55,769 bases of DNA from an uncultured virus (IMG/VR IMGVR_UViG_3300021431_000088) (Duplodnaviria; Heunggongvirae; Uroviricota; Caudoviricetes). This document shows, one piece after another, positions 1 to 46,216 of this stretch. Position 1 is the stretch's first letter. Every line of letters begins with the position of its first letter. Position numbers and translations under genes: made by a program. The stretch lies in the IMG/VR virus record IMGVR_UViG_3300021431_000088; one strand, written 5' to 3'. The notes below the pieces were generated by a model that worked only from the letters and a program-made list of their open reading frames with translations, did no database searches and was not told the origin of the DNA.

Positions 1-149
1 GCTGGAGAAAATGCTGAACGAGTAAAAGCCCGAAAGGGCTTTTACTTTTTTCAAAAAAACTTTTGAAAAAGGGTTGACATTTTCCCGGCGTTGTGCTATA
101 CTATAATCACAGAAGGGGAAAACCTTCTGAAAGAAAGGGGATTGAAATC

Positions 150-341
150 ATGGTAGAGTTTGGCAAGATGTGGCAGATTGAAAACAAGGCCGATTTTGAA
201 AAGGCTATGGCGGCGCTGGACGAAGCTAAGTTTATCGCGGAAATGTCGGATGACTTTTCCTGCTGGCGGCGTGAGCGTGAAGAGGTTGATAGACAGCGGC
301 GGCAGGTGCTGGCGGCGGCGCGTGAGAAGGGGCTAATCTAA
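150..341 (+). CDS. Small early protein, unknown function (63 aa)
   Basis: Promoter 74-102, RBS GAAAGGGG, ATG at 150, TAA at 341, terminator hairpin AGAAGGGGCT/AGCCCCTTCT plus T-tract. Confidence 0.8.
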   Translation: MVEFGKMWQIENKADFEKAMAALDEAKFIAEMSDDFSCWRREREEVDRQRRQVLAAAREKGLI

Positions 342-445
342 GCCCCTTCTTTTTCGCGCAAAAGTTAGTTATAATTAACTAAATTAAAAATGGGCAGATT
401 CACCGTGGGTCCCAGTGTCTTGTGCTCCTCCCCTGATCTGATTAT

Positions 446-474
446 ATTATAGCAGAAGGGCCGGCACTTGTCAA
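446..474 (-). promoter_or_regulatory. Antisense sigma70-type promoter with no downstream ORF
   Basis: Minus strand TTGACA-agtgccggcccttctgc(17)-TATAAT, back-to-back with the + promoter at 520. Confidence 0.75.
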
Positions 475-597
475 CCCTTTTTTTTGAAAAAAGTTTTTTC
501 AAAAAATTTGAAAAAAGTGTTGACATTTTCGCCGGGTTATGTTATTATATACTCACAGGGAGGGACAAGAGCCCACCGAAGAAAGGAAAGCAAGGCA

Positions 598-819
598 ATG
601 AAGAAGATTTACAAGATCAAGGTAGAACGGGTCACGGCTGATTGGGGACGATTCGAGGGTTATGATGAAACCTACGTGAGAACGGATAATATCGCCGCCG
701 TGGTTGAAATGAAAAAGGCAGAGATTGAGAAAATCGGCGCGTGGTGGATGGGCTACGGAAAAGCTGAAGATGGGCGCCCGAACGTGGAAGCAGAAGAGCT
801 GAACGTAATCGAAGCGTAA
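598..819 (+). CDS. Small early protein, unknown function (73 aa)
   Basis: Promoter 520-548, RBS AAAGGAAAG, ATG at 598, terminator GGCCGGCA-aaa-TGCCGGCC-T7. Confidence 0.8.
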   Translation: MKKIYKIKVERVTADWGRFEGYDETYVRTDNIAAVVEMKKAEIEKIGAWWMGYGKAEDGRPNVEAEELNVIEA

Positions 820-946
820 AGCTTCGGGCCGGCAAAATGCCGGCCTTTTTTATGTGCTGCGTTAGCTATAACTAACCAGCGCGCGGATTCCTCGTGAGCC
901 TGCCCAACCTCTCTCCGGTCTCCCCGGTGTCCTCGACTGTATCTGT

Positions 947-975
947 ATTATAAAACGTCAAGCCGTGTTTGTCAA
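947..975 (-). promoter_or_regulatory. Antisense sigma70-type promoter with no downstream ORF
   Basis: Minus strand TTGACA-aacacggcttgacgttt(17)-TATAAT, back-to-back with the + promoter at 1021. Confidence 0.75.
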
Positions 976-1102
976 GCCCTTTTTCAAAAGATTTTTCAAA
1001 AGATTTTTTCGCAAAAGGGGTTGACATTTTATCCGGCATATGATATACTAATAATGTCAAAAGGGGAAGGAAAACCCCTAAAAACCAGAAAGGGGCAAGA
1101 AA

Positions 1103-1306
1103 ATGAAGGAACTGTTCACGGAAGGAACTTACACGGCACGCGGCACGCGCAAGGGCGCAACTTATAGCGTTGAGATCGTTGATGCTAATGGTACAATCGT
1201 TGCGTATCGGTGGTTCAATGACGCTACTAAAAACGCCGATAAGTATGTGCCTGCTAAGTTTTACGACATGATTCACACGGCTATTAGCAAGACAAGGTCT
1301 TGCTAA
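1103..1306 (+). CDS. Small early protein, unknown function (67 aa)
   Basis: Promoter 1021-1049, leader hairpin, RBS GAAAGGGG, ORF track. Confidence 0.8.
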   Translation: MKELFTEGTYTARGTRKGATYSVEIVDANGTIVAYRWFNDATKNADKYVPAKFYDMIHTAISKTRSC

Positions 1307-1414
1307 TAGCCCTAATTTTTTTCAAAAAAGGGGTTGACATTTCATCCGGCATATGGTATACTTATACCGTAAAGAGGGGAAGGAAAACCCCTAAAAACCA
1401 GAAAGGGCGCTAAA

Positions 1415-1588
1415 ATGACTGTTGCGATGCTGATGGAAATCCTTTCCCATATGTCCCCTGATGCGGTGGTTGAGTTTGATGATACCTATACCCAATGCGA
1501 AGGTTGGGAAGAAGGGCACGAAGATGCTACCATGGTGGTATCTGATGCGGTGGCCGATGGTGGCCGTGTGGTTCTGCACGGCGAATAA
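1415..1588 (+). CDS. Small acidic early protein (57 aa, MTVAMLMEILSHMSPDAVVEFDD...)
   Basis: Promoter 1334-1362, RBS GAAAGGG, ATG 1415 to TAA 1588 read by hand, terminator GAAAAGGGC-gcaa-GCCCTTTTC-T7. Confidence 0.75.
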   Translation: MTVAMLMEILSHMSPDAVVEFDDTYTQCEGWEEGHEDATMVVSDAVADGGRVVLHGE

Positions 1589-1813
1589 GAAAAGGGCGCA
1601 AGCCCTTTTCTTTTTTTCAAAAAGGGGGTTGACAGATTGACTTTGCTATGCTATAATATGGATGGTGGAGGAGGGGCACATATTTTAACACTTTACTATA
1701 GTAAAGTGCTAAAGTTGAAAAATCTTTTTATAAAAGGGTTGACAAACCGGCGCGTTTATGTTATACTAATACTGTCAAAGGGGAAAGCCCTTGACAGAAA
1801 GGGGAAACGAAAA

Positions 1814-1945
1814 ATGCTGTATGTTATGCTCCTGATGAATGGCACGCTGTACACCTTCAAGACGGAAAAGGAACGTTTTGCCGCATGGATGAAACTGCCA
1901 GACTATAAAGCGAAAAACGCGCGATTCTATGAAATGGTTCTGTAA
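1814..1945 (+). CDS. Small early protein (43 aa, MLYVMLLMNGTLYTFKTEKERF...)
   Basis: Promoter 1739-1767, RBS GAAAGGGG, ATG at 1814. Confidence 0.7.
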   Translation: MLYVMLLMNGTLYTFKTEKERFAAWMKLPDYKAKNARFYEMVL

Positions 1946-2017
1946 AGAACCATTTTTCTTTTGTCGTTTTCATCTATTCGCTAAACCGTAGTTTAGCGAA
2001 TAGATGAAAAAACCGCA

Positions 2018-2144
2018 TAAAAAATGCGGAACTTCCATCCGCTTGCGACGAGGTTTTTTATTTGCTCCTTTATGCCCGTGTGTGTTTGCCCTTTTACGGT
2101 GCGGGCGGCGGGAGGCCCCTACTCGCTTGACCTTTCCTCCCTAC
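2018..2144 (-). ncRNA. Candidate small non-coding RNA, copy 1
   Basis: Minus promoter TTGACT-N17-TAAGAT at 2151-2179, no ORF, ends in hairpin GCGGA-tggaagt-TCCGC plus T-tract, paralogous to 2249-2390. Confidence 0.55.
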
Positions 2145-2248
2145 GCTTATATCTTACCACAACCTAGGGAAAAAGTCAACCCCTTTTTGAAAAAAGTTTT
2201 GAAAAATATCGGTGGTTTTTCGCGCGAATAGGCGCAAGCGAATAGGCA

Positions 2249-2390
2249 ATAAAAAAGGCGGAAGTTCCATCCGCCTGCGACTGGATTTTTTTATTTGCGC
2301 CTTTGTGCTCCTATGTGTCTTGCCATTTCCCTTTCGGTACTTTAGCGGGAGCGGCGGGAGGTTCCTACTCGCTTGACCCTTCCTCCCTGT
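2249..2390 (-). ncRNA. Candidate small non-coding RNA, copy 2
   Basis: Minus promoter TTGACT-N17-TAGTAT at 2397-2425, no ORF, ends in GGCGGA-tggaact-TCCGCC-T6, shares conserved blocks with copy 1. Confidence 0.55.
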
Positions 2391-2535
2391 GACTGTATAC
2401 TATCATATCTCTATAAAAAAGTCAAGCCCTTTTTCAAAAAAAGTTTCAAAAAAATAGGGGTTGACTTTTTCGCGCCGGTGTGCTATACTAACAATGTAAA
2501 GAGGCGGCAACGCCAGAAAGGGGATGGATGGGAAA

Positions 2536-2604
2536 ATGCTGGAAATGGTTCTGCTGGGTGCTGTCGCCATGGCATGGGTGGCCGCCCTTGTAAAAATGGC
2601 TTGA
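2536..2604 (+). CDS. 22-aa hydrophobic peptide MLEMVLLGAVAMAWVAALVKMA
   Basis: Own promoter 2461-2489, purine-rich leader AGAAAGGGGATGGATGGGAAA, ATG 2536 to TGA 2604. Confidence 0.55.
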   Translation: MLEMVLLGAVAMAWVAALVKMA

Positions 2605-2705
2605 AAAAAGTTTTGAAAAGGGCTTGACAAGCCGGACAAAACGTGTTATACTAACAATGTAAAAAGGGTGAAGGAAAACACCGAAAAACCAGAAAGGAAA
2701 GGGTC

Positions 2706-2888
2706 ATGAAAAAGTACGCGGTTATGTTCGTAAACTGGCAGGGTTGTGAAGAGGTTGAGAGGTTCGCAAAGCTGGAAGAGGCGAAAACCTACGCCGAAAA
2801 GCTGGAAGAAGAGGAAGGCAGGAACGGCTATTCGGTGGAAGAAGGTTATGAGGTTTACAACCTTGAAACTGGATGTTTCATCTATTGA
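2706..2888 (+). CDS. Small acidic early protein (60 aa)
   Basis: Promoter 2624-2652, RBS, terminator AAAAGCCC-gaaa-GGGCTTTT. Confidence 0.8.
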   Translation: MKKYAVMFVNWQGCEEVERFAKLEEAKTYAEKLEEEEGRNGYSVEEGYEVYNLETGCFIY

Positions 2889-3070
2889 CAAAAGCCCGAA
2901 AGGGCTTTTTGTTTTGTCTATACGCTTTACTATGATAAAGCGCGAAAGCGTTTAAAAAAGTTTGAAAAAAGTTTGTGAAAGGGGTTGACAAGCCGGCTAT
3001 AATGTGATATACTGATACCGTTGAAAGAGACAAGGAAAAGTCTTAAAAACCAGAAAGGAAGGAAAAGGCA

Positions 3071-3235
3071 ATGTTTGAAAACAAGGAAATCATCATCTAC
3101 GGTGTGGAACTGGAAAACGGTGAGCGCAACGTGTACACGAATGAAGGCGACAGGATTCGGTTCTTGAACTGGCTGAACCGTGTGAATTATCCGCTTTACC
3201 TGACCGCGAGAAGGTTTGAGTTGACCATTTCTTAA
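3071..3235 (+). CDS. Small early protein (54 aa, MFENKEIIIYGVELENGERNVY...)
   Basis: Promoter 2985-3013, RBS GAAAGGAAGG, ATG 3071 to TAA 3235, terminator AAAAGCGCC-gcaa-GGCGCTTTT. Confidence 0.75.
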   Translation: MFENKEIIIYGVELENGERNVYTNEGDRIRFLNWLNRVNYPLYLTARRFELTIS

Positions 3236-3462
3236 AAGCGCCGCAAGGCGCTTTTTGTTTTTCTAAAAAAAATGAAAAATAGGGGTTGACAACTTGACTT
3301 TTCTATGCTATTATATGTACGGTGGAGAGGGGCGGCCGCCTATTGACTTTAGTATAGTAAAGCGATAAAGCGCGAAAAAAGTTTCAATTTTTTTCAGAAA
3401 AAGGGTTGACATATGCCGGGTTATGTGTTATACTAAGACCATCAAAGGAGGAGGTCGAAACC

Positions 3463-3717
3463 ATGAAGTACTATGGCGCGAACGTTCAAAAGCATTGGGG
3501 TGCTCCCTATCATACGGTCTACTTTGCTATGAAAGATATCCATGACAGGAAAAAGATTGAGGAGTTTTGCCGCAAGGAATGGAACTTGACGAAAAAGAAT
3601 TGCTTTGGCTTGTATCCTGTCAAGCCCGCGGAATACTTTGTCAAGGCGTTGACGTGGCCGCAATCCAATTCCGAAAACTTTTGGAACTATCGCAAGTCTA
3701 TCATGGTCACGTTGTGA
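3463..3717 (+). CDS. Small early protein (84 aa)
   Basis: Promoter 3406-3434, RBS AAGGAGGAGGT, ATG at 3463. Confidence 0.8.
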   Translation: MKYYGANVQKHWGAPYHTVYFAMKDIHDRKKIEEFCRKEWNLTKKNCFGLYPVKPAEYFVKALTWPQSNSENFWNYRKSIMVTL

Positions 3718-3830
3718 CCATGATATTTTTTTGAAAAAATATCAAAAAAGGGGTTGACAAAGTGAAACGCCGGTTATAATATATAGTCAAGAGATGCGGA
3801 AAGCATCTCAAAGAAAGGAAGGAAAGAAAG

Positions 3831-3977
3831 ATGTTCACCTACACCATCAGCGAGTACCCCAACCTGGTAAAGCCCTTCGCCGTCTACCGCAATGACCCGT
3901 TTGGCAACGGCGCGATTGTAAAGACCTTCAAGACTCGCAAGGGCGCGGAGAATTGGATCAGGCGGCAGACCGCCTGA
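3831..3977 (+). CDS. Small basic early protein (48 aa, MFTYTISEYPNLVKPFAVYRND...FKTRKGAENWIRRQTA)
   Basis: Promoter at 3754, RBS GAAAGGAAGG, ATG 3831 to TGA 3977 read by hand. Confidence 0.75.
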   Translation: MFTYTISEYPNLVKPFAVYRNDPFGNGAIVKTFKTRKGAENWIRRQTA

Positions 3978-4379
3978 TCCCTTTTTTGGTATATGGTTAG
4001 TTATAACTAACTGAATGGGCTATGAGGTTAGTTATAACTAACTGAACGGGCGGAGGGACTATTGAGTTAGTTATAACTAACCAGACGCACGAGATTTGCC
4101 CTGAGACGCGTTGAAATGGCATTAAATGCCCGTCCGGTTGATGCCTCTTAATTTCAGCGCGTCTCAGGGCGTTCTACGGAAAATCATGAATAATTATACA
4201 TTTGAGTGTATAAAAACCGCATTTTTATACAGAAATACTATGGTATTCTGTATAATATACATCGTTTTTCTGTATATGCGCACAGCGGTATTTTTCGCGT
4301 GATAAAAAAATTACAAAAAAGGTGTTGACAAACGGTCTTTTATCGTGTAATATAAAGACAAGAAAGGGGGAGGGACTCA

Positions 4380-4817
4380 ATGAAGAAGGCGATCTGGTTC
4401 GACATGGATGGAACGATTGCTAACCTGTACGCGGTGGATGGTTGGCTGAACGACCTGAACAACGAGAAGGCTCGCCCGTATCTGACGGCTAAGGTTATGC
4501 TCAACATGAATACCCTCGCCCGCCTGCTGAACAAGGTACAGAAAAACGGCTATTCCATCGGTATCATTTCTTGGACTTCTAAGAATGGTTCGGCCGCCTA
4601 CAATGAGAAGGTAGCAACCGCAAAAAAGGTTTGGCTGTCTAAGCATCTCAATTCTGTAAAGTGGGACGCCATTAAAGTGGTTCCCTATGGCACGAACAAG
4701 AACACCGCTTGCGGCGGCGGTATCCTGTTTGACGATGAAGAAGGCAACCGCAAGGCATGGACAAACGGTATCGCCTACACGCCTGACAACATTATGACAG
4801 TGCTAAAAAAACTTTGA
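4380..4817 (+). CDS. HAD-superfamily phosphatase, 5'(3')-nucleotidase-like
   Basis: HAD motif I (IWFDMDGTIANL), motif II (IISWT), motif III Lys and motif IV (ILFDD), promoter at 4325, RBS GGAGG. Confidence 0.8.
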   Translation: MKKAIWFDMDGTIANLYAVDGWLNDLNNEKARPYLTAKVMLNMNTLARLLNKVQKNGYSIGIISWTSKNGSAAYNEKVATAKKVWLSKHLNSVKWDAIKVVPYGTNKNTACGGGILFDDEEGNRKAWTNGIAYTPDNIMTVLKKL

Positions 4818-4913
4818 AAAAAGTCAACTAAAGGGTTGACAATTTGCCCGGTCTGCTATAATATATAGACAAGAAGTGAAGGAAAACACTTAAACACCAG
4901 AAAGGGCAAGACC

Positions 4914-5096
4914 ATGAAGAACTACACCGTTGAGACCGAACACACCAACATGACCGCCGACTATGAGACCTTCACCAATGAAGGGAACGCCCGCAAGTGG
5001 TTCGATAACATGGTTAAGCGCGCCGAATCTGACAAGTCTATCGAATGGGTGAGGATTGTACACGGCAACGACTTTACCGCCGAGTGGTATCGCTAA
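4914..5096 (+). CDS. Small early protein (60 aa)
   Basis: Promoter at 4836, leader hairpin, RBS, terminator AAGAGACCC-gcaa-GGGTCTCTT. Confidence 0.8.
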   Translation: MKNYTVETEHTNMTADYETFTNEGNARKWFDNMVKRAESDKSIEWVRIVHGNDFTAEWYR

Positions 5097-5283
5097 GAGA
5101 CCCGCAAGGGTCTCTTTTCTTTCCCCTTTACACTTTACTATAGTAAAGCACTAAAGCGCGAAAAAAGTTTTGAAAAAATCGAAAAAGTTTTCAAAAAAGG
5201 GGTTGACAATTCGCCCGGCACGCTATAATATACAGTCAAGAGGTGAGGGAAAGCACCTCAAGAAGAAAGGAAGGTAAACCACA

Positions 5284-5481
5284 ATGAAGACCATGAACGA
5301 GATTAACAACATCATCTGCCACGTCATGACCGACAACGATTTCGACCACGTCCTTGAAGCGGCCTACGACCGCGATGACTTGGACAAGCGCGTTGCCTAC
5401 AACGGCAAGCGGCGTCTGGTAAGGGCTCTCAACAAGTACGGTCTGACCCTCAACGAGTGGGACGCTTGGGACGCCATGTAA
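5284..5481 (+). CDS. Small early protein (65 aa)
   Basis: Promoter at 5203, RBS AAAGGAAGGT, terminator GGCGGAGGGC-gtaa-GCCCTCCGCC. Confidence 0.8.
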   Translation: MKTMNEINNIICHVMTDNDFDHVLEAAYDRDDLDKRVAYNGKRRLVRALNKYGLTLNEWDAWDAM

Positions 5482-5539
5482 GGCGTCCCACAACGGCGGA
5501 GGGCGTAAGCCCTCCGCCTCTTTTGTCGTTAGCGCTTTC

Positions 5540-6550
5540 GCGCTTTACTATAATAAAGTATTTGGTTAGTCATAACTAACCTGCCAAACAGGCAAACGGA
5601 AGGTTTGTCCGAACTTTGTTAAATTATTGTCAATCTCGCCGCTAAGATAGATTGTTAATTTTGTGTCAATCTCGCCACTATTAGGGCACGCTAACTAGTT
5701 GTTAAAAAAACGACAATCTCGCCACTAGTGAGTTAGTTATAACTAACTCGCTGGCGGAGGAACTTCGGCGGTTAGTCCACACTAACCGCCGAAACGGCCA
5801 AACTTATGTTCGTCAGGAAGATTGTTAAAATATTGTCAATCTCGCTGCTAGCGGGCACTTTGTTAAATCTTTAACAAGCGCCCGCTATTAGTTAGTTAGT
5901 CATAACTAACCACGCGAAAAAGGCAAACGTGCGGTTTGTCGGAAGATTGTTAAATCTTTAACAAGCGCCCACTAGTTAGTTAGTCATAACTAACTTAGCG
6001 GTCCTGGGTTAGCCATAACTAACTGCCCAAACGGGCAAACGCACGTTTTGTCCTAAGATTGTTAATTCTTTAACAATCTCGCTGCTAGGTGGCGGTTGTT
6101 AAATCTTTAACAATCTCGCCACTAAGTTAGTTAGTCATAACTAACTTCACGGACTACTACAAGATTGTTAAAACGTTAACAATCTCGCCACTAGGTGGCG
6201 GAGGGACATGGGCGCGCAAGCGCGCCGGCAGCGCGACCTATACGAGGGCAGCACCGCTGCGGTGGTGGAGGGACGTGCCCGGCGGAGGGACATGCCCGGC
6301 GGAGGGACTAAGGTTAGTTAGTCATAACTAACCAAACGGACTATTGGTTAGTTAGTCATAACTAACTCGATGGACTATTGTTAAATCTTTAACAATAGGC
6401 CGAAACGGCCAAACGTAAGTTTATTAGGAAGATTGTTAAACCTTTAACAATCTCGCTACTATTACAGAATGAGGTTATGAAACGTCATTTCCAAACTCCG
6501 GACGGTTTTCGACTGTCCTGTACTTTAGCACTTTACTATAGTGAAGTGCG
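5540..6550. repeat. Non-coding cluster of interspersed palindromic repeats
   Basis: GTTAGY(T/C)ATAACTAAC at 5565, 5732, 5895, 5979, 6008, 6130, 6317 and 6351. About 11 copies of TTGTTAA-N4-5-(TTAA/TGT)CAA(TCTCGCYRCTA). Repeated GGCGGAGGGA and GGC(C)AAAC blocks. No ORF of 60 aa or more. Confidence 0.9.
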
Positions 6551-6636
6551 CCGGACGGTTAAAAAAGAATGAACCGTCCTGGACGGCCATTTATACGAAA
6601 CGCTATCGGTCATGCGCCGGCAGCGGTGTTTGACAC

Positions 6637-7109
6637 GCGTGCGCATTTTTTTGACCTCAAACCACAAGGGCAGAAAAATGCGCGCGCCTTGTTATCCGTC
6701 GCTCCCCTATGCGGCGGTAGCGCCGCAAGCGCGCCCCTCATGTCTTAAGCCACATAGACAGGAGGGGCGCGCGTCCCTGTTGATTCGTCTCTACCCGCGG
6801 GGCGGAGGGACGGGCACGCTTCACACGTCTCAAATCACAAAGACGGGTGAAGCGTGCCTTCCTGTTATTCGTCCCAGTATTGGCTGAAGGCGCATACGCG
6901 CGCCTTGTTCTTTTTAAGCCACACAAAAGAGCAAGGCGCGCGCCTGTTATTCGTCCCACTTGCTGCGGCGGAGGGACGCCACATTTTTCGTTTTTTAAGC
7001 CACAGAAAAACGAAAAATGTGGCCCCTGTTGTTCGTCGCACTTGCTAGGGCGAAGCGCTACGCGATTGCTTTTCATTTTTCAAGCCATCAAAAAATGAAA
7101 AGCAATCGC
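6637..7109 (+). repeat. Tandem array of six hairpins with unrelated stems and a conserved 10-nt loop
   Basis: Hairpins at 6637-6687, 6729-6772, 6813-6858, 6897-6942, 6978-7023 and 7062-7109. Loops CAAACCACAA, TAAGCCACAT, CAAATCACAA, TAAGCCACAC, TAAGCCACAG, CAAGCCATCA. A CCTGTTATTCGTC-like linker follows units 1-5. Confidence 0.9.
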
Positions 7110-7528
7110 CTTCATATGCCCTGGCCCGGTAGCCCTGTATTTTCAAATCATTGGGTAAGGCGGCGCGTAGTGCCGCAGCCATAATTTTTTTAATATTGGT
7201 GGAGGGGGTGCCAGAAAAAAGGGCATGCCTTTTTCTTTGAAGTTGAAAAGGAGGGTTGGCCTTTTGTTTTTTGAAATTGAGGAAGAATTAGGGATGAAAT
7301 AGTTATGAGAAAAATACTGATATTAGAGTGTAATATTGCCAGCGCAGCTCAGCTCCGGCGTAAACCCAGGTCCCCGGGGTATGTTTTGGGATCAGCTTTT
7401 ATTTAATTCTAATTGGCGTAAGGGCCGTCCACAAATGCCACCAACTTTTTTATTTTTGAACCTTATTTCACACATTCCACCAACTTTTTTATTTTTAGAC
7501 CCTAACACCAACTTTTATCCTCAAATAC

Positions 7529-7558
7529 TTGACACCCATAACCCCTATATGGTACAAT
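7529..7558 (+). promoter_or_regulatory. Promoter of the morphogenesis operon
   Basis: TTGACA-N18-TACAAT with extended -10 TG, then RBS AGGAGG ahead of ATG 7585. Confidence 0.7.
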
Positions 7559-7584
7559 AAAACAAGAAAATAGGAGGCGATTCT

Positions 7585-8895
7585 ATGAAAAAAGCTTACT
7601 CGCTCGACTTCTCCATTGTTCGAGACGTGGATCGTCTTCACGCAGTTGAAGAGATATTGGATACAATGGAAAAAGATCCAACTGCTACCGAATTAGAACA
7701 AATGGCATCCTATATCCTATATGGAAAAGATGAAGATGGAAAAAATAGTATTCAACGCAACGAAACCATAGATAAAGATAAGCGTTTTAAGAGTTATAAG
7801 ACAAAAGATGATAAGGTATAGTCCTTGGATAGAATTATGGAAACCCCCGGTTTTGATGAGTAGCAACTTCGTTCCGCATATAAGCGCGATCCCTATACGC
7901 AACCGAAACCTAGTATTCGGCGCCCAAAATACGACAAAACTACCGGTGAGATGATAGACCCCGGCGATTCCGACATTCCCGGTATGGTGGAGCAATGGGA
8001 GATTATTGATAGGTGGCAGCGCATGCTCGACATCGCGCAAGGAAAAATAACCCCCACGGAAAATGACACCATCATTTCTGATCCCTACCGCATTTACTTA
8101 CTAAAACATAACTTAATTGATATTAGGAAACATTAGTATTATTTGAAGGACTCATATAAGCCAGAAATACATTTCCAAAACTTAGATCACCCAAAACCCC
8201 AATACTATGATTGGTCGCGCGATTCCTTCTATTGGATTCCCTACGCCGAATGGCAAGACCGTGTCAATCATTCCTATACAACCCGCGTATCTAAACGCCT
8301 AGAAGACTATGAGACGCGAGGGGAGGGCGACAATCTCGAAGTGAAGTGGGTAGTTTGCCAACACACTTTCGACTGGGAAAATTACCTCCATGTACGCGCC
8401 CTACTTAATAATTATCCACTTATGTATGATAGTATGCATGACAAGTTAAATACATATGGATGTGTTCTGCTTTGGGACTTAGACCGCTACATTAAGTTAT
8501 GTAATTTTACCGAATTGCGCCTTTTCTTTATAGATATGCGCAAGCAAGGCATCTCCTATGAAGATATAATGAGTGAAATGCGAGCGCGCTTCGCAGTCGA
8601 ATACTCACCCAACTACCTAGCCTTTGTTATTAGTAATGAGATACCCAAGAAAATTGCGCAAGTAGCAAAAATGGAAAGATTGAAGCATGAGACACCACCC
8701 GAAAAATGTAAAAAATGTATTCATTGCGGCCGCATTTTACCTGCCGACTAGCTCTTCTTTAGTAAGAATAACGCGCGAAAAGATAAGCTTTCAAGCGTCT
8801 GTAAGAGCTGCGACAAGATTAACCGTTTAGAAAGAGGAGTGATTAATAAAGATGGAGACCTCCGAAGGAAAGACCCGACGTTGCCTAAAATGTAA
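7585..8895 (+). CDS. Putative DNA-binding regulator with sigma region-4-like HTH and C-terminal Zn finger (436 aa, TAG recoded)
   Basis: ORF fragments 7585, 7951 and 8143 are in one frame separated only by TAG, and the gene ends at TAA 8895. Contains FFIDMRKQGISYEDIMSEM and CIHC...CKSC. Confidence 0.65.
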
Positions 8896-9802
8896 GCGCG
8901 AGTTGCCGCAAGAAGCTTTCCAGCATACACCCTCCAAGTTCTTTCCTGGCGGCGTCTGCTACATTTGTACCTCATGCCTTGAAACAATGATTAAGCAAGA
9001 TAATTTGGGCGAAGTAGACCGCCTAATGCGCTGGCTTGACCTCCCATTCGACCTCGACAAATGGACATAGCTTTACGCACAACATAAAGATCATACATTA
9101 ACTGCTTACTTCAATCTCCTATATGATGATCACTATTCTAATTTATAGTGGCAAGATGAAAATGAAAGATGGCGACTTGCGCGCGAAGAAGGCGCCATTG
9201 ATGACGAAATTAAGACACTTAATGAGTCGAAAATGAAGAAATTGAGAAAGGTATGGTCTGCCGCATATAAGCCTGATTAGTTGCTATGGCTTGACAACTT
9301 CTATAATTAGATTGTCGCAACACAAAACGTTTCTACACCCATCCTTCAAGAAAAGGCTCGTGATTTCTGCGAACTTCAACTCCATATTAAGGAAGGCTTG
9401 CGCGCAGGCGTTGATGTTTCTAAAATGATGAAGCAGGCAGACGATATTGTAAAAACATATAATTTTACTGCCTCTAATGCTAAATCCGCGGCCGACTTCG
9501 AATCCGTTGGTGAACTTATGGTATACTATGGAAAGAAAGGATGGCATCCAAATTGGCATACCGAGCCGCAAGACTCCATTGACTTTATGATGGAAAACAT
9601 TTAGAACTATTTGAAGCGGCTTGTTATGAATGAGGGTAATTTTGCGGAACAAGTAGAAGATAAGAGGGCTAGATATAATATGACTGAACGATTAGAAGAA
9701 ATTGAAAATGAGAAATTAGAGTTTGACGAAACCGCCGATATTGAGTATGAAGGTGAGGATAGTCTGGCTGCCGAGCTAGGAAGTGATGATGTGAATGAGT
9801 GA
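8852..9802 (+). CDS. Zn-finger protein, possible terminase small subunit (316 aa, TAG recoded)
   Basis: Fragments 8852, 9398 and 9611 are in frame and end at TGA. N-terminal CLKC...CTSC, acidic C-terminus, overlaps the terminase large subunit start. Function inferred from position. Confidence 0.55.
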
Positions 9803-11579
9803 GCTACAACCAATTGTATATAGAGATGGCATACCAGTTGAAAAAGGCATCGTACTAACTAAAGAGTTCCTCGACAGCAATCAAGAGTTATTTACAAAAT
9901 ATTTAAATCTATGGATTCTATTTCCGGACCTATGGCTCGATGCGATTCAAGACACTACCGATGCTCAACACTTCCATCTCTTTCCTTTCTAGCGCATCAT
10001 GTTGCGCGCAAACATGCGTTATCGTTATTCCTTTACTACAGCTACGCGCGCGACTTCCAAATCCTTTACTGCCTACCTAAGTGGTGTATGCCGAGCAGTC
10101 CTGCTTCCAAACTCTAATATCATGATTGCTTCTGATGTTAAAGGTACGGTTATAAAGATTGCTGAAGCTAAGTTTGAAGAAATATTTAGACATTGGCCTC
10201 TCTTACGTAAGGAACTAGCAACGCGCGAAGACGACGGTAAGACAGGCGTCAAATCTAGTAATAACTACTATGAATTACGCTTCAAGAATGGCAGCATGAT
10301 TACTGTTGTTTCTAAGGATACTTCAAGAGGTCTTAGGGCAACTGCTGCTATACTAGAAGAGTGCGCCCTTATCGACGAGGTTCCATACAACGAAGTTTTA
10401 CTTCCTCAGATGAATATAAAAAGGCGCGAAGTTGATGGCTCCATTAATCCCGATGAACCAAGCTCGCCCCAAATCTTTATCACTACTGCCGCAGAACGAA
10501 CCGTATTCATGTATTAGAAGTTAATTGAAATTACAGTTAATGCGGTATTGCGGCCGAAAGAGTATTTTTCATTTGGTCTTTCATATGAAGTTCCACTTCA
10601 CTATGGCCTATTGGATAAGGCTACGCTAATGGATCAGAGATATTCTAATACTGTTAGTGAGGAATCATTCGCGCGCGAAAGTTTAAGCATTTGGGCGGGT
10701 AGCTCTAAAGATGCTTGGTTAGACTCTCGAAAACTAAATAGATACCGTAGTTTATTAAAGTGCGAACGTAAAGCTACATATTCTAATAATTAGGATGCTT
10801 GGTATCTATTAGCAGCAGATATAGGTAGATATAGCGCGAATACCGCAATTATGGTAATTAAAGTACTACCCAATGCGCAACGTTTTAAAAAGAATGTTGT
10901 TTATACCGAAGTTATCAATGGCGCGAACTATATTACTGAACAGGCACCACGTCTTAAAAAGTTAATTCAATTATATGAGCCACGAGAAATTGTCATCGAC
11001 GGTAATGGCCCAGGTATTGGATTACTAGATGCCATGGCATTACCATCTGTAGACTCCAAAACAGGCGAATAGTTCCCTCCTTATTATGTATTTAATAATG
11101 ATCATCATTTACCGCCTGAAATGCGCACTCCAAGCGATGAACCAATGCCGCGCCTAAATGCTATAATTTATGATATTAAGGCAAGCGCATCTAATGAGGA
11201 TGAAATCAATTCAGCATTTTTATCCGCTATTAACAATGGTTCAACATCCTTCCTCGCGCATGAACGAATTATCAAAGAAAAGTTAATGGCTACAAAAAAG
11301 GGACAAAAGATGACAGCCTATGATAGACGAGTATTCTTATTACCCTATGAAATGACATCTCGTTTAATGGATGAATTAAATAATTTGCGCATTAAGCCTA
11401 CTGGTATTGAAAATAAATATAAAGTAGAACGCATATCGCGCTCACTGGAGAAAGACCGTTTTAGTGCTTTAGAATATGGCCTATATCGTATAAAATATTA
11501 TGAAGATAAGGAAATTTTCAAAAAGAAAAGAAAGAATATTGGATAGTTTGGCTTTTTTACTCCTAAAAGTAGGAGGTGA
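9795..11579 (+). CDS. terL: Terminase large subunit (594 aa, 5 in-frame TAG)
   Basis: Five in-frame fragments. LFPF(TAG=Q)RIML adenine-binding motif, Walker A-like TRATSKS, SRGLRA, Walker B ILEE, FITTA coupling motif, nuclease LAADIGR, IDGNGPG and KDRFSALEY. Confidence 0.92.
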
Positions 11580-22125: not shown

Positions 22126-22153
22126 ATTTTTGTGATAAAAGGAGATGAATGGT

Positions 22154-25100
22154 ATGGGTATGGCAAGTCAAGGAATATAGCTGCCAATTTCTCTATAGTT
22201 ATCTAATTTATAGGACATTGTTAAATAGTTAAAACAGTTTGCGTCAAGTAATGTTTTAGCTGATTCTTTCGGAGGGAAGAAGCTAGATAAAGAATTAAAT
22301 TAGATTTCTGATAAGTTAGAGAGAATTAGCGCGAAATCAAAAACTGCTTTTACTACTCAATCAGATTTTGCTTCGATTCAAAGGGAAATAGACGCAGTAG
22401 AGGTTAGCTTAAATAAAGCGCAAGGGACTATTTAGAATCTAAGCTTTGGAGATTTAAAAATCCCTGCTGATGTTATGGGTAATATTGATGCGTTATAGGA
22501 ACGTATTCGCGCATTAAATAACAGTTTAATTTCATTTAAAGGAACGCAGAAAGAAAAGCTAGTTAATAATTAGGATTTTTTAGCCAACCTCAATGTTGCT
22601 GCTCCTGAAAAAGCAGCAGATATGCTATCAAAAGGCTATGATGAATTATATACTGCTATTTAGACAGGCATGAGTAAAGTTAATCAAAGGTTAGCTTTAG
22701 CAACTGCAGAATATAATAAGCAATAGGAATTATTAACATAGAATAAAGGTAGCGAAAAGTTTGTCACTCAATGGGGCGCTATTGATTACATGTCTGCTGC
22801 CTTTAAGACACTTGGTAAAAATGGTCAATAGAATGATGTTTAGAAATCCTTATAGGGAATGCTAAATTTTGATCAAAATGGTGTATTTTCTGGTTTTACA
22901 AATGGCGGTGCGCCTGGATTTAAGAAATTTTTCTCAACCCTAAAAGATGCTTTTTCATTTAGCGATGAAGATATTGCAGATATTAGGGCACGTTTAAAGG
23001 AATAGGCTGAAAAGTTAAAGGTTACTCAAACTGAAGTTTTTAAATAGTTAGGGGATAATCCAGAACTAGCAAAGAATATTCTATTCGGTGATAAAGCTGG
23101 ATTTGTAGAAGCCTAGAAGGATTTAATTAATTAGATTACTTCAGCACGCGATGCTGCATAGGCAGCAATGCAAAAATGGTCTACTCGTCGAGATGCTTTT
23201 GCAAATGTTAATCAAGCTTTTGATTTACCCCAAAAAGAAATTAAAGCCAAAGCTCAAGAGATTGCTGAGGCTTTAAAGATACCACAAGAAGCTTTAAAAG
23301 GCTGGGAAGCTGCAGTTGTTTCTGCGGTAGCTAAATCCCCACAGCTTGCGGCATTATTTGGAGAGGCTTCAGCGCAAGTTGGCAGAATGACCTAGACAGT
23401 CGAATAGGGTAAATAGAGATTATAGCAAATTGATACCACTATTGGAAAAATGTAGGGTATTTCTAATTTTATTAATAGATATGTTGGCATTTATGCTATT
23501 ATGCGTAAAGTCACTACTATGATTAGAAATGCCTTTAATAACATAAAAGAGCTTGATGCGGTAATTACTAAAATTGCTGTCGTTACAAATATGTCTCAAG
23601 AAGATCTCTGGGGCAAGATTGGTGAATATACCGCAATGGCACAGCAATATGGTGTTGCTACAAAAGATGTATATACAGTATCTCAAATCTTCTATCAGCA
23701 AGGTTTATAGACAGCACAAGTTATGTCTTTAACTACTGAAACCTTGAAGATGGCTAAGATTGCTGGTCTGGATTATGCTGCGGCCGCAAATGCTATGACA
23801 GTTGCTATTCGCGCTTTCAATATAGATATGTCTGAGGCATAGTAGGTTACTGATACATATAGCGCGCTTGCAGCTAAGTTTGCTGTAGACTCTGGTGAAA
23901 TTGCCAATGCTATGGAAAAGACAGCATCCTCTGCTGCGAACGTTGGTATGTCATTACAATCTACGTCTGCTTTCATGAGTGTTATGATTCAGACTACTCG
24001 TGAATCTGCATAGAATATCGGTTCTGCTTTAAAGTCTATTATTTCACGTTATGGTGAAATGAAGGCTTCTCCAAAAGAGTTATTAAATGTCGATGGAGAA
24101 GAAGTTTCATTTAACAAAGTAGATACAGCATTAAAGTCAGTTGGTATTTCTATTAAAGATGCTAGTGGGTAGTTCCGTGACTTTGATGATGTAATTCTGG
24201 AATTAGCAAAGAAATGGGATACATTAGATAATAATACATAGAGATACATTGCTACTGTTATGGCTGGTAACAGACAGCAATCTCGTTTTATTGCTCTTGT
24301 ATCTAACTATGATGAATTAAGCCGTGCTATTGATGTTGCTAATAATTCATAGAATACTAGTATTGTATAGACTGCTAAAACTATGGATTCATTAGAAAGC
24401 AAAGCAAATCAGCTAAAGAACGCTTTTTCTTAGATTTACCTTGATTTACATATTGAAGATGGATTAAAAGATCTGTATGATTGGCTTACAAGAATATTAA
24501 AAACTATTGGAAAATTAGGAATGCTTAATGGTGCGTTACCAACATTAGCTAATATTATTGGCGTTGGTAGCGGCGCTCGGTAGTCGATTGATACTTATAA
24601 GAAACATCTTGAAAGTGATAGAGAAGGTATAAGGGAAAAATTAGAACTAGATACAAAAGCTGCTGATCAAGAAAGAGCTGACTTTGAAGCACGATTAAAA
24701 GAAGAAGTTAAAAAAGTATTAGATTTAGATACTACTAAGGCAGAACAAAAGGCTGATGAATTAAAAACTAAAATAGATTAGATTGCTGAGACAGCTTAGA
24801 CTATGACTAATCCTAATACAATTCCTGATAGTCCAACTAATAATTTTAATAATTTAGTATATGGAGCATATAAGGCTAATACTCTAGGTAGCAAGGCTGG
24901 GCGAGCTGAATTACTTTCCTAGTTAGGCGTAAAAAGCGGAACAGACCAGTTTAATTAGATGGATAGCATTTTAGCTAATATGTAGGGTTTAACTGGTACT
25001 GAATTGACTGGAGCCTTAACTGCTTTAGAACAAGCTTTTAATGGTACAACATCTACAGTTGAAACTCTCTCTACTGAAGTACAAAATGCTAGCACAAATG

Positions 25101-28100
25101 TTGCTAATGCGGGATTGGCCACTAATGAAGTTACAAATACAACTACGATAGCTAGTGCAGTAGTTTAGACTGGATCTTAGTAGATTAATTAGGGTTTAGT
25201 TGAAGCTGGTACGGCAGCAGTATAGACAGGATAGAGTCTTAATGATAATAGTATTGCTGCAAATTAGTCAAAGCAATCATTAGAGGGTCTGGGAACGGCC
25301 GCGAGTGATGATGAAGAGTCATTATCACAATTAACGCCTGCCATTTAGGCTTCTACAGCAGAACTTCAAAGATTACCTGCAGAAGTAGCTACCAATACTA
25401 CTGCTATTGAGAATAATAATATGGCTCTTAGTACTATGAGTTTGGCAGCGCAATCAGCAGCAATGGCAGCTCTTTATTTGAATATGGCTCTTCAATTAAG
25501 TACTGGTCAAATTACAATGGCAGTCTTAAAAGGTATGGGGAGCTTAGATAAGCTTGAAGAAGGCAGTAATAATGCTAGTTTAATACTTGTAAATAATGGC
25601 GAACTTTTAAATAAGATAACTGCTACAGTAGCTAATCAATTATCCCAGATGAATGATGCGGCAAAAGAGGCTACTGATGGATTATCAAATATACCGGGGC
25701 CTAACAATAATCCAACACCTGGGCTTCCTGGTCAGACTAATGAGAATCCTAAACCTGCAGAGAATCCTAAGCTTAAAGAAGACCCTGATAATCCTCCTCC
25801 TACTAAAAAGGATACTGGTCTAAGTTGGAGTAATTGGGGGACTGGGAAAGCTCGTACTATAGCGGGAATTGGAACAACTGCGGCTCGTATGCTCGGTATG
25901 ACTATTATGGCAGCTGGAGCCGCTAAAGAGGATAAAGCTAACGATAAAGTCGAAGGATCTAAGATATTCACAGGTATTGGTAATGGTTTATCTTCTGCGG
26001 GTACTGGTGCTTCAATGCTTATGGGATTAGGCCCTTGGGGCGCAGCAGTTGGCGCGATTGGAGGTTTCTTAATAGGCGGTCTTGGAGCTATTATCGATGG
26101 TGCTAATTATACAATTGCAGAACGAATTGAAAATGCGAAGAGAGAAGCTTAGAAGGCTAGCGATGAAAGTTTGAAAGCCCAAGCAAAAGTTACTGATATG
26201 AGCAGTCAAATTGAAAACTTGAAAGCGTTACAAAAAGCTATGTATAATTCCGATGAAGATATGCAGAATTATATAGAAGCAATGAATAATATGGCTTCTG
26301 CTTATCCTGAATTAATTAGTGGGTATGATAATGCTGGTAATGCCATTATTGATTTAAATCATGCTGAAGAAGTTCTTGCAAGTACTCGTCTGGAGGGAGC
26401 AAAAGCAGCATAGGCAGCAGCAATAGCCGCAGCAGATGTAGCGAATAAACAAGTTGAGGCATATGGTAAACTTAATGATAATGAATTAGAGTATGGGTCT
26501 CCACAAGTTAGTGATATTGAATTAACTAGAAAATATATGGAAATAGCTATGGACACTCCAGAAGGAATTGGAAAACTAAGAGGAAAACTCTAGCAAGTAG
26601 GAGGAGAAGAAGATAGCCCGTACGCAAGACTTAATAGTACGAACCTTACAAAAATGTTAGGTGAAGCTCAAGAGTATGGCTATATGCCGAATTCTTCAAA
26701 GTACGTAACCAGTACGGTACTCAGAGAACTTGGACCATTACAATGGTATGAGGATAACTATAAAGCATTAAATCTCCCCGATGTATATCAAGTTACAAAT
26801 CATAAGAAAGATAGTAATTAGTGGTCATTTGATGAAGTTGAAATTTTGTTAAGTTATATTGAAGCTCAATAGAAAAAATCAATTAAAACTTAGGAAAATG
26901 TTAATAAATTAGTTGATGCTAGTGTTGGATTAACATCATTCTTAAACTTTTTACCATCAGCTAAATTAGACTAGTAGAATACTGAACTTTTATCTACGAA
27001 TAAAAATTTCTAGGGTATTTTTACTAGTATGCTTGAAGCAGCGAAACCAAAAGATTTTGCTAATTTATCTGAATGGGCAGAAAGTGAAGGTAGCACTTAT
27101 AATAGTGTTGCTTCTTCATATTTTACAAATTTTAAGGAATGGTATAAGTCATTAGAGCCTTAGTTACGAGAAGAATTTGCAAATTTAGATTATACAGAAT
27201 TTAAGAGTGCAACTGATATAACTTCACATTTTGGTCTTGATGAGATAGAAGATTCACAATTATATGACAGTATAGTACACAACTTTATTGAACAAAACCA
27301 ATCTAATCGTGATCGTATTTTGCGTATGGTTTGGGGCGCCGATGAAGATGGAAATGTTAATATTAGTTTTGATAAATCAAATTTAGAAAAAAACTTTACA
27401 GGCATTAGTAAACTTGGATATATAGGAGAAAAAGCTTTTACGCAAATTGGTAAAGCATTTGATGATAAAGGCGACGATGTAATTTCAAAATATGCTGATT
27501 TCTTTGCTACAAATATTTCAGATATTAATGAATTAGCTAACAACGGATATACTCAATTAGCTTCTACAAGATTAACTTTATTGAATTATTTATCTAATAC
27601 TTTAGCACAATTAGATTCTAGTTAGCAAGAAGACTTATTTGGTATTATTACAAATATAGATTTTAGTAATTTTGATTCGCTCCGTACAGCTAGAGAATCA
27701 TTAGAAACTTATGCTGAAAAGAATAATATAGATCTTAATGATAAGACTAATAATGTAGCTAAAATTTATCGTAGTTTAACTAGAGCCGAAAATAATTTAG
27801 TTTTTAATGTTACTACTCTTTCAGAGACTCTTACCACAGATATTACAAGCGCAGCAAAAAATATTGATAGTATTTTAACTGCTAATAAGTCTGGTTTGAG
27901 TTTAGATAAAGCATTAGATGCTATGAAGTCTATTAATGCTAAACTAGGTAAAGCATTCACATTTGATCAATTATTCACTTATGATGCGGCTCTCGGAAAG
28001 TATGTATATACGGCAGAAGGATTAAAGGCACGATTAGATGCGGAAGAAAAACATTTAAGATAGGATGCAGAACAATTAGAGAATGCGGCTCATTTAAGTG

Positions 28101-37100: not shown

Positions 37101-37654
37101 CACAAGCTCATTGGAATACCTTATTAGAGTATAATCCTAATTTAGCAAAGAAACTTAAAGATTATAAATAGACATATATTCGAGCATATACAAACGCTGC
37201 TAAAACAGAGGATCCATTAAAGCCAAATACTTGGGAAGGAAGAGTCGCTGGAAATAAGGCATTAGAAGATGCATTTGAAAAAATGGGCCAAAAGATTAAA
37301 ATTAATACCTATGACATCGGTGGTATGGTAGATACTACCGGCCTCGCACTACTTCACGCCAAAGAAGGCGTCTTAACTCCTGAATAGACCGATGTACTTC
37401 GTAATGAAATCCTCGGCGGTCAGAAAGACTCTTTAATGAACCTACTATTAGATTTCCGTAAGGCTTATACTGGCATTGGAAATGTTGCTCTTGCGGCCGC
37501 ACCTAATGTTGTGATTGAAAATGCTTCAGTTAATATGAATGTTGGCTCTATTGCTAATGACTACGATGCTCGTCGTGCGGGCGAACAAGCTCTTACTGAA
37601 ATGCTACGCATTGCTCGTAAGACTGGTTCTGCCAATAGTATATCAAGGAGGTAA
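22154..37654 (+). CDS. Giant tail tape measure protein (~5,166 aa, heavily TAG recoded)
   Basis: RBS AAAGGAG. Fifteen + strand ORF fragments from 23168 to 37436 share one frame, and the gaps read by hand contain only TAG. Tape-measure core LDAVITKIAVVTNMS...ESAQNIGSALKSIISRY...RDFDDVILELAKKWDTL, C-terminal LMGELGPELVV and YDIGGMVDTTG motifs. Not every codon was checked. Confidence 0.85.
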
Positions 37655-44254: not shown

Positions 44255-44302
44255 AAAAAAAATACCGGCAATCCAAACGGATTGCCGGTCTTATTTTTTT
44301 TT
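44255..44302. terminator. Bidirectional terminator between the convergent operons
   Basis: A8-T-ACCGGCAATCC-aaac-GGATTGCCGGT-CTTA-T9. Confidence 0.85.
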
Positions 44303-44684
44303 ATTCCTCAATAAATGCTTCCAATTGCACCATCTGCGCGGGAGTGAAGTTTAAATCTTCTAAGTCATCCAATTTAACTTTCCCCGCATTTATACTTATA
44401 TCTAAGTTCAATACTTGGTTTAAAGCATTTATAAACTCTTTCATATTGTCGCCATCGAATGTATATGAATTATTACTATCTAAAATATATTCTCCATTTT
44501 CATCCTTTTTAGCGAACTCATCTAATAACTTTGCGCGCGTATCGTTAAACATTTCTAGTTCTTCGTCGGCGGCTTTAATGATTTTACCAAGCTAATAAGC
44601 GGTCCGGCCTTTAACTGGCCGATCAGCTAATTCTCTTAGCACATTCATATTATTTAATAATGTATTCAACTTTATTTCAATCAT
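44301..44684 (-). CDS. Hypothetical phage protein, DUF1617-like (127 aa, 1 TAG)
   Basis: MIEIKLNTLLNNMNVLRELADRPVKGRTAYQLGKIIKAADEELEMFNDTRAKLLDEFAKKDENG. The start overlaps the upstream stop (ATGA). Family call is from memory of the pattern. Confidence 0.6.
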
Positions 44685-45433
44685 ACAATATCTTCTCCCC
44701 AGTGTACCTGATTGGATTTTAGCTTGCTACAGAAATACTTACCAATACAAATTGCGTCGGCTTCATCTTCTGTACAATCCATCCCATACCACACCTTTAC
44801 CTTAGCTTGCGCGGCTTTCTTCTTAGCATCACGATGCGAATCACCATCATTAATGCCGCAATATGAGCGCCATTCACTTGGATATACAAGATCGCTATCA
44901 ATGCAAGCTTCGAATATCACATCTTTCAACACACCTTGTAAGTTTGCTAAAGTTTGAAATGTCTTTACTTGTGTTTGATTCTTCGCGCCATAGCTCTGCA
45001 ACTAAATGTTTTCAATTCCAATAAAATCTGGATTCCAGTTTTTTATTGCGGCTTTAAGCCACTATTTTACTTCATTGATGCGCTCAACTGTTTCTAAACT
45101 AGAATTAGTTTTGTATGTCCCATACCCTACTAATACTCTATCATCATAAATTGAATATCCAGTAATGCTTGTGGCCGCATCTAATGCTAGTATTCTCTAT
45201 GTATTATCTCCCTTTAGAGGAATCTTATTCTTTTTAATTTTGTATGGATCACCAGCCATACAAATATCACAAAGCTTATGTTTACGCCACTAATCAAATG
45301 TCTATTCCTACTTATGACCTTCAGGACAAATCATTTCTAGTGGAGTTTTTAAGTTTTTATAAACTTCGCTAGTTAGCTACCATCCTTCAGCTTCCAGAGC
45401 ATTTCTTACTACATATATGTTAATAGTGCTCAT
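44681..45433 (-). CDS. ruvC: RuvC-like Holliday junction resolvase with N-terminal Zn ribbon (250 aa, 7 TAG)
   Basis: RILALDAATSITGYS, FIGIENIQ, VYPSEWR and EDEADAICIG catalytic motifs, N-terminal CPEGH...CDIC. Confidence 0.85.
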
Positions 45434-46203: not shown

Positions 46204-46216
46204 ATTTCACACCTTC

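Follow-up and report, generated by a model that had tools for sequence, protein, structure and literature searches.

CsrB/RsmZ-type sponge RNAs of bacteria titrate a protein by means of many hairpins, which combine a recurring GGA motif with stems of few pairs and irregular spacing. A related layout is found in IMG/VR record IMGVR_UViG_3300021431_000088, a stretch of 55,769 nt from an uncultured Caudoviricetes phage (hereafter the window), in which six hairpins form a tandem array at positions 6637-7109. As in CsrB/RsmZ, there are many hairpins, the stems differ from one another and a short motif recurs in loops and linkers. The array differs in being phage-borne, in its stems of 17-21 pairs, in its regular period of 81-88 nt and in its motif, YAARYCAYM. 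The source genome is a siphophage of about 180 kb from the rumen, in which TAG is recoded to Gln. The array is under selection for both fold and sequence, and may act as a decoy RNA.

RNA decoys carried by phages also offer parallels. ToxI units are 36 nt long, nearly identical and folded as a pseudoknot. The pseudo-ToxI element is described as an RNA decoy against a host defence protein (PMC3475682) and resembles the array as an accessory set of tandem non-coding repeats in a phage genome. The array units are instead ~85 nt long, ~30% diverged and dominated by a long hairpin, with no toxin gene nearby and no Rfam match. RNA anti-CRISPRs (Racr) and solitary repeat units are a further precedent, presented in PMC10651486 as small structured RNAs with which phages imitate a host RNA and thereby tie up the protein that binds it. 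Racr copies the CRISPR repeat and conserves the stem, whereas in the array the stems vary and the loop is conserved.

Other comparable systems act in cis or are mobile. Nut sites and the boxB-boxA elements of rrn leaders, as outlined in PMC13753749, also place a hairpin before a conserved linear motif in nascent RNA. However, those are single sites while the array has six in tandem, the array linker is weakly boxA-like and relatives with the same late genes lack the array. Repetitive extragenic palindromes (REPs) occur as hundreds of dispersed copies, alternate in orientation within bacterial interspersed mosaic elements (BIMEs) and go with REP-associated tyrosine transposases (RAYTs). The array shares with REPs and BIMEs palindromic units, sometimes clustered, whose folded form matters, but has neither a dispersed copy nor a transposase in the sequence searched. 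Finally, in phage T5 the genes dmp, A1 and A2 are reported to precede 1.66 kb of untranslated sequence that contains repeats, inverted repeats, palindromes and DnaA boxes (bioRxiv 10.1101/866236). The array resembles this injection-stop (iss) region in belonging to a long untranslated stretch, rich in repeats and palindromes, right after the first-expressed genes. Unlike the array, the T5 region is described as conserved in order among 25 T5-like phages and as holding eight DnaA boxes (bioRxiv 10.1101/866236), whereas the window has no consensus DnaA box.

Architecture of the array

The six hairpins are co-oriented on the + strand, with stems of 17-21 positions and loops of 9-10 nt that share the consensus YAARYCAYM (Table 1). 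Their loops start at 6658, 6746, 6831, 6915, 6996 and 7081, giving spacings of 88, 85, 84, 81 and 85 nt, just where the original prediction, made from the letters alone, had placed them. All stems are G/C-rich at the base and A/T-rich at the top, with almost no wobble, and unit 1 is the longest and most divergent of the six. Among the stem imperfections claimed earlier, the single G-T pair of unit 4 and the A-G mismatch at the same stem position of units 2 and 3 (six from the loop) are present, but unit 1 contains only two G-T pairs, not three, together with a single A-G mismatch.

The conserved 3' linker that had been proposed, CYTGTTRWTYCGTC, follows units 1-5, with one extra base in the copy after unit 2, and has decayed after unit 6 in this genome. 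RNAalifold suggests that the CGTC of the linker may pair with G.GACG before the next hairpin to form a small, weaker second helix, which is broken in two of the six units. Downstream, the stemless loop-like remnant is possibly a decayed seventh unit. Upstream, the element at 6197-6226 resembles an array unit without the A/T-rich upper stem and loop, and its 11-mer motif also occurs at 6281, 6298 and 4049 and within the linkers that precede units 3 and 5.

Evidence for selection on pairing, loop and linker

The array is real and lies far beyond chance. Over 601 nt the + strand folds to -300.2 kcal/mol compared with -203.5 +/- 7.2 kcal/mol for shuffled sequences (z = -13.4), and the - strand of the same 601 nt also folds better than its shuffles (z = -9.8). 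Eight hairpins with at least 17 pairs occur in the whole 55.8-kb window, five of them inside the 473 bases of the array. With units 2-6 aligned, pairing holds in 96.7% of the 90 cells, in agreement with the near-perfect stems reported earlier, and both sides have changed in 15 of 18 stem pairs. This level of pairing and covariation was matched by none of 500 shuffles, and pairing falls to 41-64% in a control with the partners slid by one to three columns. RNAalifold, given no structure, predicts the same helix. A covariance model (R1) was built from units 2-6 with unit 1 held out, and finds unit 1 at 43.6 bits (E 3.6e-12). In the rest of the window R1 has no further + strand match, while its five - strand matches are the same hairpins.

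The stems were originally called unrelated. Pairwise identity between units 2-6 is nevertheless 51-53% in the stem arms, which marks the stems as diverged copies of one ancestor, that is, paralogues. Identity is higher in the loop (69%), bearing out the claim of a common conserved loop, and in the 3' linker (66%, with the decayed sixth copy included). Such a difference is expected if pairing is all that is required of the stems, whereas the loop and linker are recognised by their sequence.

Parts of the array are also present in other samples. Contigs of three other bovine-gut runs, from three studies, cover the array with roughly 5-8% of letters differing. A contig of run X5 covers 6756-7010 (14 differing letters), contigs of X7 cover 6695-6988 (23 differing letters) and 6975-7457, and a contig of X19 covers 6883-7191 (26 differing letters); run X6 gave no cover across 6463-7217. 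Two spurious open reading frame (ORF) products in a protein collection are also translated variant arrays, P0001 from the - strand and P0002 from the + strand. A third spurious-ORF query returned no variant, and a search of 1.84 billion representatives added just P0003, an unrelated repeat protein.

P0001 and P0002 were placed on reading frames of the window over 71 of 78 and 123 of 132 residues, respectively. Codons that fall entirely within stems never differ (0/61), compared with 22 of 133 other codons (Fisher p = 1.6e-4), in a test to which synonymous changes are invisible, which counts unit 4 from both proteins and which places a ten-residue P0002 segment on a paralogous linker. Of the two loop changes seen, one turns T into C at loop position 1 and the other C into T at position 8 of unit 4, and neither leaves the degenerate motif. 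The linker changes between strains repeat variants already present among the six units (CCTGTT to CTTGTT, ATTCGTC to ATCCGTC), and P0002 carries an intact linker motif after unit 6. At the level of these codons the stems are shown to be under purifying selection between strains. Conservation is thus reversed relative to the comparison between units, as the stems are constant and the rest varies.

Selection on pairing plus loop and linker identity, proposed at the outset for structure and loop, is supported by three lines of sequence evidence: covariation among units, conservation of loop and linker above that of the stems, and stems that stay unchanged between strains while the linkers drift.

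Table 1. Coordinates of the hairpin units and of neighbouring features in the window
Feature	Position	Strand	Description
Unit 1 hairpin	6637-6687	+	21 stem positions, two G-T, one A-G mismatch; 9-nt loop CAAACCACA at 6658-6666
Unit 2 hairpin	6729-6772	+	17 positions, A-G mismatch at position 6 from loop; loop TAAGCCACAT; model 85.0 bits
Unit 3 hairpin	6813-6858	+	18 positions, A-G mismatch at position 6; loop CAAATCACAA; model 85.2 bits
Unit 4 hairpin	6897-6942	+	18 positions, one G-T; loop TAAGCCACAC; model 84.0 bits
Unit 5 hairpin	6978-7023	+	18 perfect pairs; loop TAAGCCACAG; model 79.5 bits
Unit 6 hairpin	7062-7109	+	19 perfect pairs; loop CAAGCCATCA; model 73.4 bits
Linker motif after unit 1 (CTTGTTATCCGTC)	6688-6700	+	More copies at 6776-6789, 6861-6873, 6943-6955, 7025-7037
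Stemless loop-like remnant TTTTCAAATCAT	7140-7151	+	
GGCGGAGGGAC motif (as in linker), then short GC-only palindrome	6197-6226	+	
Two weak hairpins then T runs, 3' of array	7200-7275	+	May mark transcript end
Untranslated repeat field upstream of array	5520-6470	.	Palindrome GTTAGTNATAACTAAC, 12 copies in window; TTGTTAAA..TTTAACAATCTCGC, 8 copies
Three direct repeats CCACCAACTTTT(TTATTTTT)	7430-7520		Just upstream of promoter of sigma-like gene
Sigma-70-type promoter	7529-7558	+	TTGACA, 18 nt, TG-TACAAT (11/12); serves sigma-like gene; three CCACCAACTTTT repeats before it
Sigma-like gene	7585-8895		
TerS-position gene	8852-9802		
TerL gene	9795-11579		Portal gene next

Distribution among relatives and in databases

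On present comparisons the array is an accessory element confined to one lineage of a clade of recoded rumen phages. R1 has no match in the 54 related loci searched (of 74 fetched) or in 46 loci derived from pattern scans, 1.15 Mb in all, and in five complete or near-complete relatives of 177-190 kb it finds nothing better than E = 0.99. The covariance search suggested originally recovers the held-out unit and nothing in the related phage loci searched. No cluster of three or more long hairpins occurs in the 74 related loci, inspection of 48 loci by eye revealed no comparable array within 3 kb upstream of the sigma-like gene, and Tandem Repeats Finder reports only unrelated 45-65-nt repeats in the relatives. 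A blastn search of 5600-7600 against 50,697 phage records gave no match.

The array-less relatives keep its neighbours, with up to 76% identity in the sigma-like protein and up to 83% in TerL, and a TerS-like gene. In the closest relative, L003, the slot of the array is filled by - strand genes and promoters. In L072 the slot, between GTTAGT palindromes and CCACCAAC repeats with a promoter, has 10 perfect DnaA boxes.

Wider pattern scans returned only chance matches. The two-loop pattern gave at least 119 stretches in IMG/VR, and a hairpin filter applied to loci L075 and up passed a single 9-pair site (L165) and no array. The two-linker pattern gave 41 stretches, of which 40 (L194-L233, without L234) were run against R1 with no match, and none of the six IMG/VR stretches with loop plus linker matches R1. 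Among JGI metagenome contigs nine stretches have one site each. Eight of these score 17.7-24.1 bits, as expected for stretches that contain the searched pattern, and the three inspected (L244, L245, L249) are a CRISPR array and unrelated sequence. The CRISPR array, at 150-520 of L244, has a repeat ending in GGATTTAAGC, a chance hit of the scan. One genome per species of GTDB gave two stretches, in Gemmatimonadales and Gammaproteobacteria assemblies, with a best model score of 12.5 bits.

The array is apparently undescribed, a statement based on Rfam and these sequence scans and not on a literature search aimed at the motif. No Rfam 15 family matches anywhere in the window at its gathering score, which agrees with the original failure to recognise the element, and an E-value threshold adds just microRNA-precursor models on the hairpins, at 20-24 bits against cut-offs of 62-72. 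The unit length of ~85 nt would suit a tRNA or tmRNA, and ARAGORN finds no such gene in the window or in 20 related loci. A CRISPR array was rejected as Tandem Repeats Finder reports none over 6600-7110 and the best-conserved blocks are the 10-nt loop and 13-nt linker; the variable parts of each unit are complements of each other. Coding is contradicted by unit lengths (88, 85, 84, 81 and 85 nt) that break frame and by ORFs across the array without a Pfam match, and a guide or antisense array by stems that match nothing elsewhere in the window beyond 12 nt. The core site of integron attC is GTTRRRY. The linker GTTATTC/GTTGTTC does not fit it by eye, and no integrase was found in the window. 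A ToxI-like antitoxin array was set aside on units of ~85 nt that are ~66-70% alike and on the next gene, which is sigma-like and not a toxin gene. The array could still work in a ToxI-like manner, as a free-standing mimic needs no toxin gene.

The distribution bears on whether the array is a palindromic repeat, selfish or neutral, like REPs, BIMEs or miniature inverted-repeat transposable elements. In that case it would have entered a non-coding region that tolerates insertions and multiplied there in tandem, and its structure would be maintained by its own propagation or by arm-to-arm repair, not by an advantage to the phage. Its presence in one lineage only, in the most variable part of the genome, suits this idea, as do near-perfect arms, which fit arm-to-arm correction. 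A REP, BIME or REPIN family is however contradicted by R1, which finds no copy outside 6628-7125 in the window and none in the five complete relatives or 100 other loci, a search that covers these phages and not the host genome. The loop and linker pattern likewise gave chance matches alone in IMG/VR, JGI contigs and GTDB species genomes. No RAYT (Y1/HUH) or other transposase is found among the window ORFs scanned with Pfam and PHROG (all but the 5169-aa ORF). All units share a single orientation, and the loop and linker are conserved above the level of the stems. A selfish origin is thus improbable, and neither an Rfam nor a REP-like match, named in the original prediction as an argument against it, was found in the sequence searched.

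Much less likely still is a DnaA-related role, in which the loops are degenerate DnaA boxes that replace the box clusters of some relatives. The loop TAAGCCACA agrees with TTATCCACA at seven of nine positions, and perfect TTATCCACA clusters lie upstream of the sigma-like gene in L072 (10; 7501-7649), L013 (4; 4806-4849) and L074 (4; 461-497). The window itself has no TTWTNCACA where shuffling predicts 6.5. This absence also rejects a cluster of true DnaA boxes, and the loops of every unit deviate at box positions 2 and 4. Further, DnaA reads double-stranded boxes, so the compensated paired flanks would lack a role, and the similarity could be chance.

Possible functions

The reading we favour, with a probability of about 0.3, is that the array specifies an accessory, lineage-specific non-coding RNA, a multivalent decoy whose repeated loops bind a protein. 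The transcript, from the + strand and roughly 0.5-0.7 kb long, would carry six very stable hairpins, the tip of each presenting the same 9-10-nt single-stranded loop, YAARYCAYM, and each would be followed by a single-stranded CYUGUURUUCGUC segment. The RNA would thereby present six equivalent binding sites to one protein, and a host or phage factor that reads hairpin loops may be titrated by this decoy or sponge. We infer the transcription, the + strand activity, the binding of protein to the loops and the titration effect. The decoy reading is favoured because the array is an accessory, structured, multi-copy phage element with selection on pairing and on the identity of two single-stranded segments.

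The units, the upstream early promoters and the downstream genes all point in the same direction. The wobble pairs are all G-T on the + strand (three, versus no A-C), and the + strand folds 21 kcal/mol better than the - strand over the 601 nt. The claim that the + strand is the folded one draws on these three G-T pairs, but is weakened by the individual units, as described below.

Several observations weigh against the decoy. The strand preference is weak; with RNA parameters only units 1 and 4 clearly favour the + strand, while units 3 and 6 favour the - strand, and G-U pairs account for only 3 of 111 stem positions. With their 17-21 near-perfect pairs the stems far exceed typical protein-binding RNA hairpins in length and are closer in appearance to DNA palindromes or RNase III substrates, and palindromes of the double-stranded-DNA type fill the surrounding 1.7 kb. 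No promoter was found for the array; the weak sigma-70-like match near its start (6651-6679, 9/12) compares with 3.4 such matches expected by chance in the region. Neither of the T-rich hairpins at 7200-7275 passes the terminator scan. The array has no homologue outside the lineage, and hence no independent covariation. As for a candidate partner, Pfam and PHROG scans of the window ORFs revealed no known RNA-binding protein. As for expression, run X19 is labelled metatranscriptomic but flagged as probably DNA, so that none is deduced from it, and the runs listed for the array include no RNA run.

Some of these points would suit a cis-acting DNA signal, in which single-stranded DNA hairpins or cruciforms are read by a protein for replication priming, packaging or staged genome entry. 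This explanation is possible but less probable than the decoy. The array sits within a 1.7-kb untranslated field of palindromes and direct repeats directly after an early region with a weak deoxyribonucleotidase-like ORF, for which the T5 repeat-rich injection-stop region after the pre-early genes is the closest parallel. The G/C-rich stem bases, the A/T-rich tops and the nearly wobble-free pairing also fit DNA, as do the lack of a detected promoter and the DnaA boxes in the same slot of L072. With DNA parameters the + strand is at least as stable as the - strand in five of six units, and in the sixth the - strand is better by just 0.1 kcal/mol. However, 18-bp arms around a spacer of ten nucleotides extrude poorly as cruciforms. 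Conservation across T5-like phages also sets the T5 region apart from the array, which is not conserved. Relatives with 75-83% identical sigma-like, TerS-like and TerL proteins lack the array, which argues against a family packaging site, a terminus or a late-operon antitermination site.

A cis-regulatory RNA array within a longer transcript is rather unlikely. Here the hairpins would be weak terminators, pauses or RNase III-type processing sites that insulate the early region from the operon that follows, or that are bypassed by an antitermination factor as at nut or boxB-boxA sites. TTNTTT is the motif of NusG-dependent pauses, and the TTATTC/TTGTTC of the linker resembles it. RNase III sites in the form of hairpins also occur in early mRNAs of T7 and of SP82, a phage of B. 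subtilis. The G/C-rich stem bases are followed by CCUGUUAUUCGUC, with four to five U in the first nine bases, and unit 5 passes the terminator scan. The order of hairpin then linear motif matches the small hairpin and boxA of B. subtilis rrn leaders as given in PMC13753749. Against this, unit 5 is the only one of the six units to pass the scan, and the linker is weakly boxA-like, agreeing by eye at ~6-7 of 11 positions with two published boxA consensus sequences, UGCUCUUUAACA and AUGAUCUUUGAAA. Termination or pausing needs no conserved loop, the last early gene already ends in a strong terminator (5495-5518), and the relatives do without the array.

Genome context

The flanking annotation agrees with the proposed placement of the array, after an early region and before the packaging genes. 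Sensible gene calls are obtained in the window only if TAG is taken as a sense codon, and most structural genes are open under the same code; the 5169-aa ORF at 22145-37654 contains 117 in-frame TAG codons. TAG is used as sense in most structural and some other genes, at 7585-44253 (+) and 44301-48418 (-), while the early ORFs, the NrdD/NrdG genes and a polymerase fragment have no in-frame TAG. No suppressor tRNA was found in the window.

Bases 1-5300 form the early region, with at least 12 strong + strand TTGACA-N17-TATAMT promoters. At least 12 near-identical early cassettes were observed, each with an A/T-rich upstream tract, a promoter, a leader hairpin and a short ORF of no known family. 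These are reminiscent of the promoter-stem-loop cassettes of T4-type phages. A perfect palindrome, ACTTTACTATAGTAAAGT, precedes five of them (1681, 2915, 5123, 5533 and 6521). The deoxyribonucleotidase-like ORF lies at 4380-4817 (5'-deoxyribonucleotidase PHROG, E 8e-10; Pfam NT5C under cut-off). The small protein encoded at 5284-5478 has no relative in IMG/VR.

The untranslated stretch covers 5520-7580 and holds, in order, the palindrome field, the array, the two weak T-rich hairpins, the CCACCAACTTTT repeats and a promoter. Within the palindrome field, a 17-nt unit that includes GGAGGGAC is repeated 2.5 times in tandem at 6267-6308. The GTTAGT palindrome is shared with relatives L013, L033, L055, L072 and L074. 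The arrangement of CCACCAACTTTT repeat and promoter before the sigma-like gene recurs in L072, which keeps one copy of the CCACCAACTTTT motif.

TerL shares 31-36% identity with the terminases of large siphophages of Bacillus, Geobacillus and Enterococcus and with that of phAss-1, which is reported as a TAG-recoded gut phage (PMC10607447). It is 68-83% identical to TerL of nearly all the 74 fetched IMG/VR loci, with one at 53% and one near-identical at 99%, and several of these loci come from complete 177-190-kb genomes. The sigma-like protein has a C-terminal CxxC...CxxC zinc ribbon, and the TerS-position protein starts with a similar ribbon (7585-9802). The zinc ribbon has weak PHROG matches to endonuclease VII and Lar-like families.

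Further downstream, the anaerobic ribonucleotide reductase gene nrdD is split (52012-53031 and 49509-50813, -) around a LAGLIDADG-type endonuclease ORF at 51042-51875, probably through the insertion of an intron or intein. Next to NrdD and the radical-SAM activase, which is NrdG-like, lies an ORF of the formate/nitrite-transporter family (48462-49509, -; PF01226, E 1e-19). As class III reductases use formate as their reductant, this ORF may be a linked auxiliary gene. An ORF at 47369-48418 (-) combines a membrane and coiled-coil portion at its N terminus with a GIY-YIG nuclease domain at its C terminus.

Implications

The array is an unusually clean signature, from a single genome, of selection on structure plus loop. 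The accessory non-coding elements of uncultured phages are almost unexplored, and those that have been solved, pseudo-ToxI and the RNA anti-CRISPRs, are counter-defence decoys. By extension, and more speculatively than the decoy itself, a single RNA bearing six loops on rigid, diverged stems might be a new phage counter-measure that soaks up a host loop-reading protein, such as a defence nuclease or a global RNA regulator. The divergence of the stems might then be adaptive, for example against recombination or cross-unit misfolding. If the array instead turns out to be selfish, the known range of REP-like elements would come to include phage genomes. As the clade has many sequenced relatives that lack the array, it provides a natural comparison with and without the element. 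Finding a partner of the loop could uncover a host protein that is new as a target of phages, or else a cis-acting DNA signal of a new kind.

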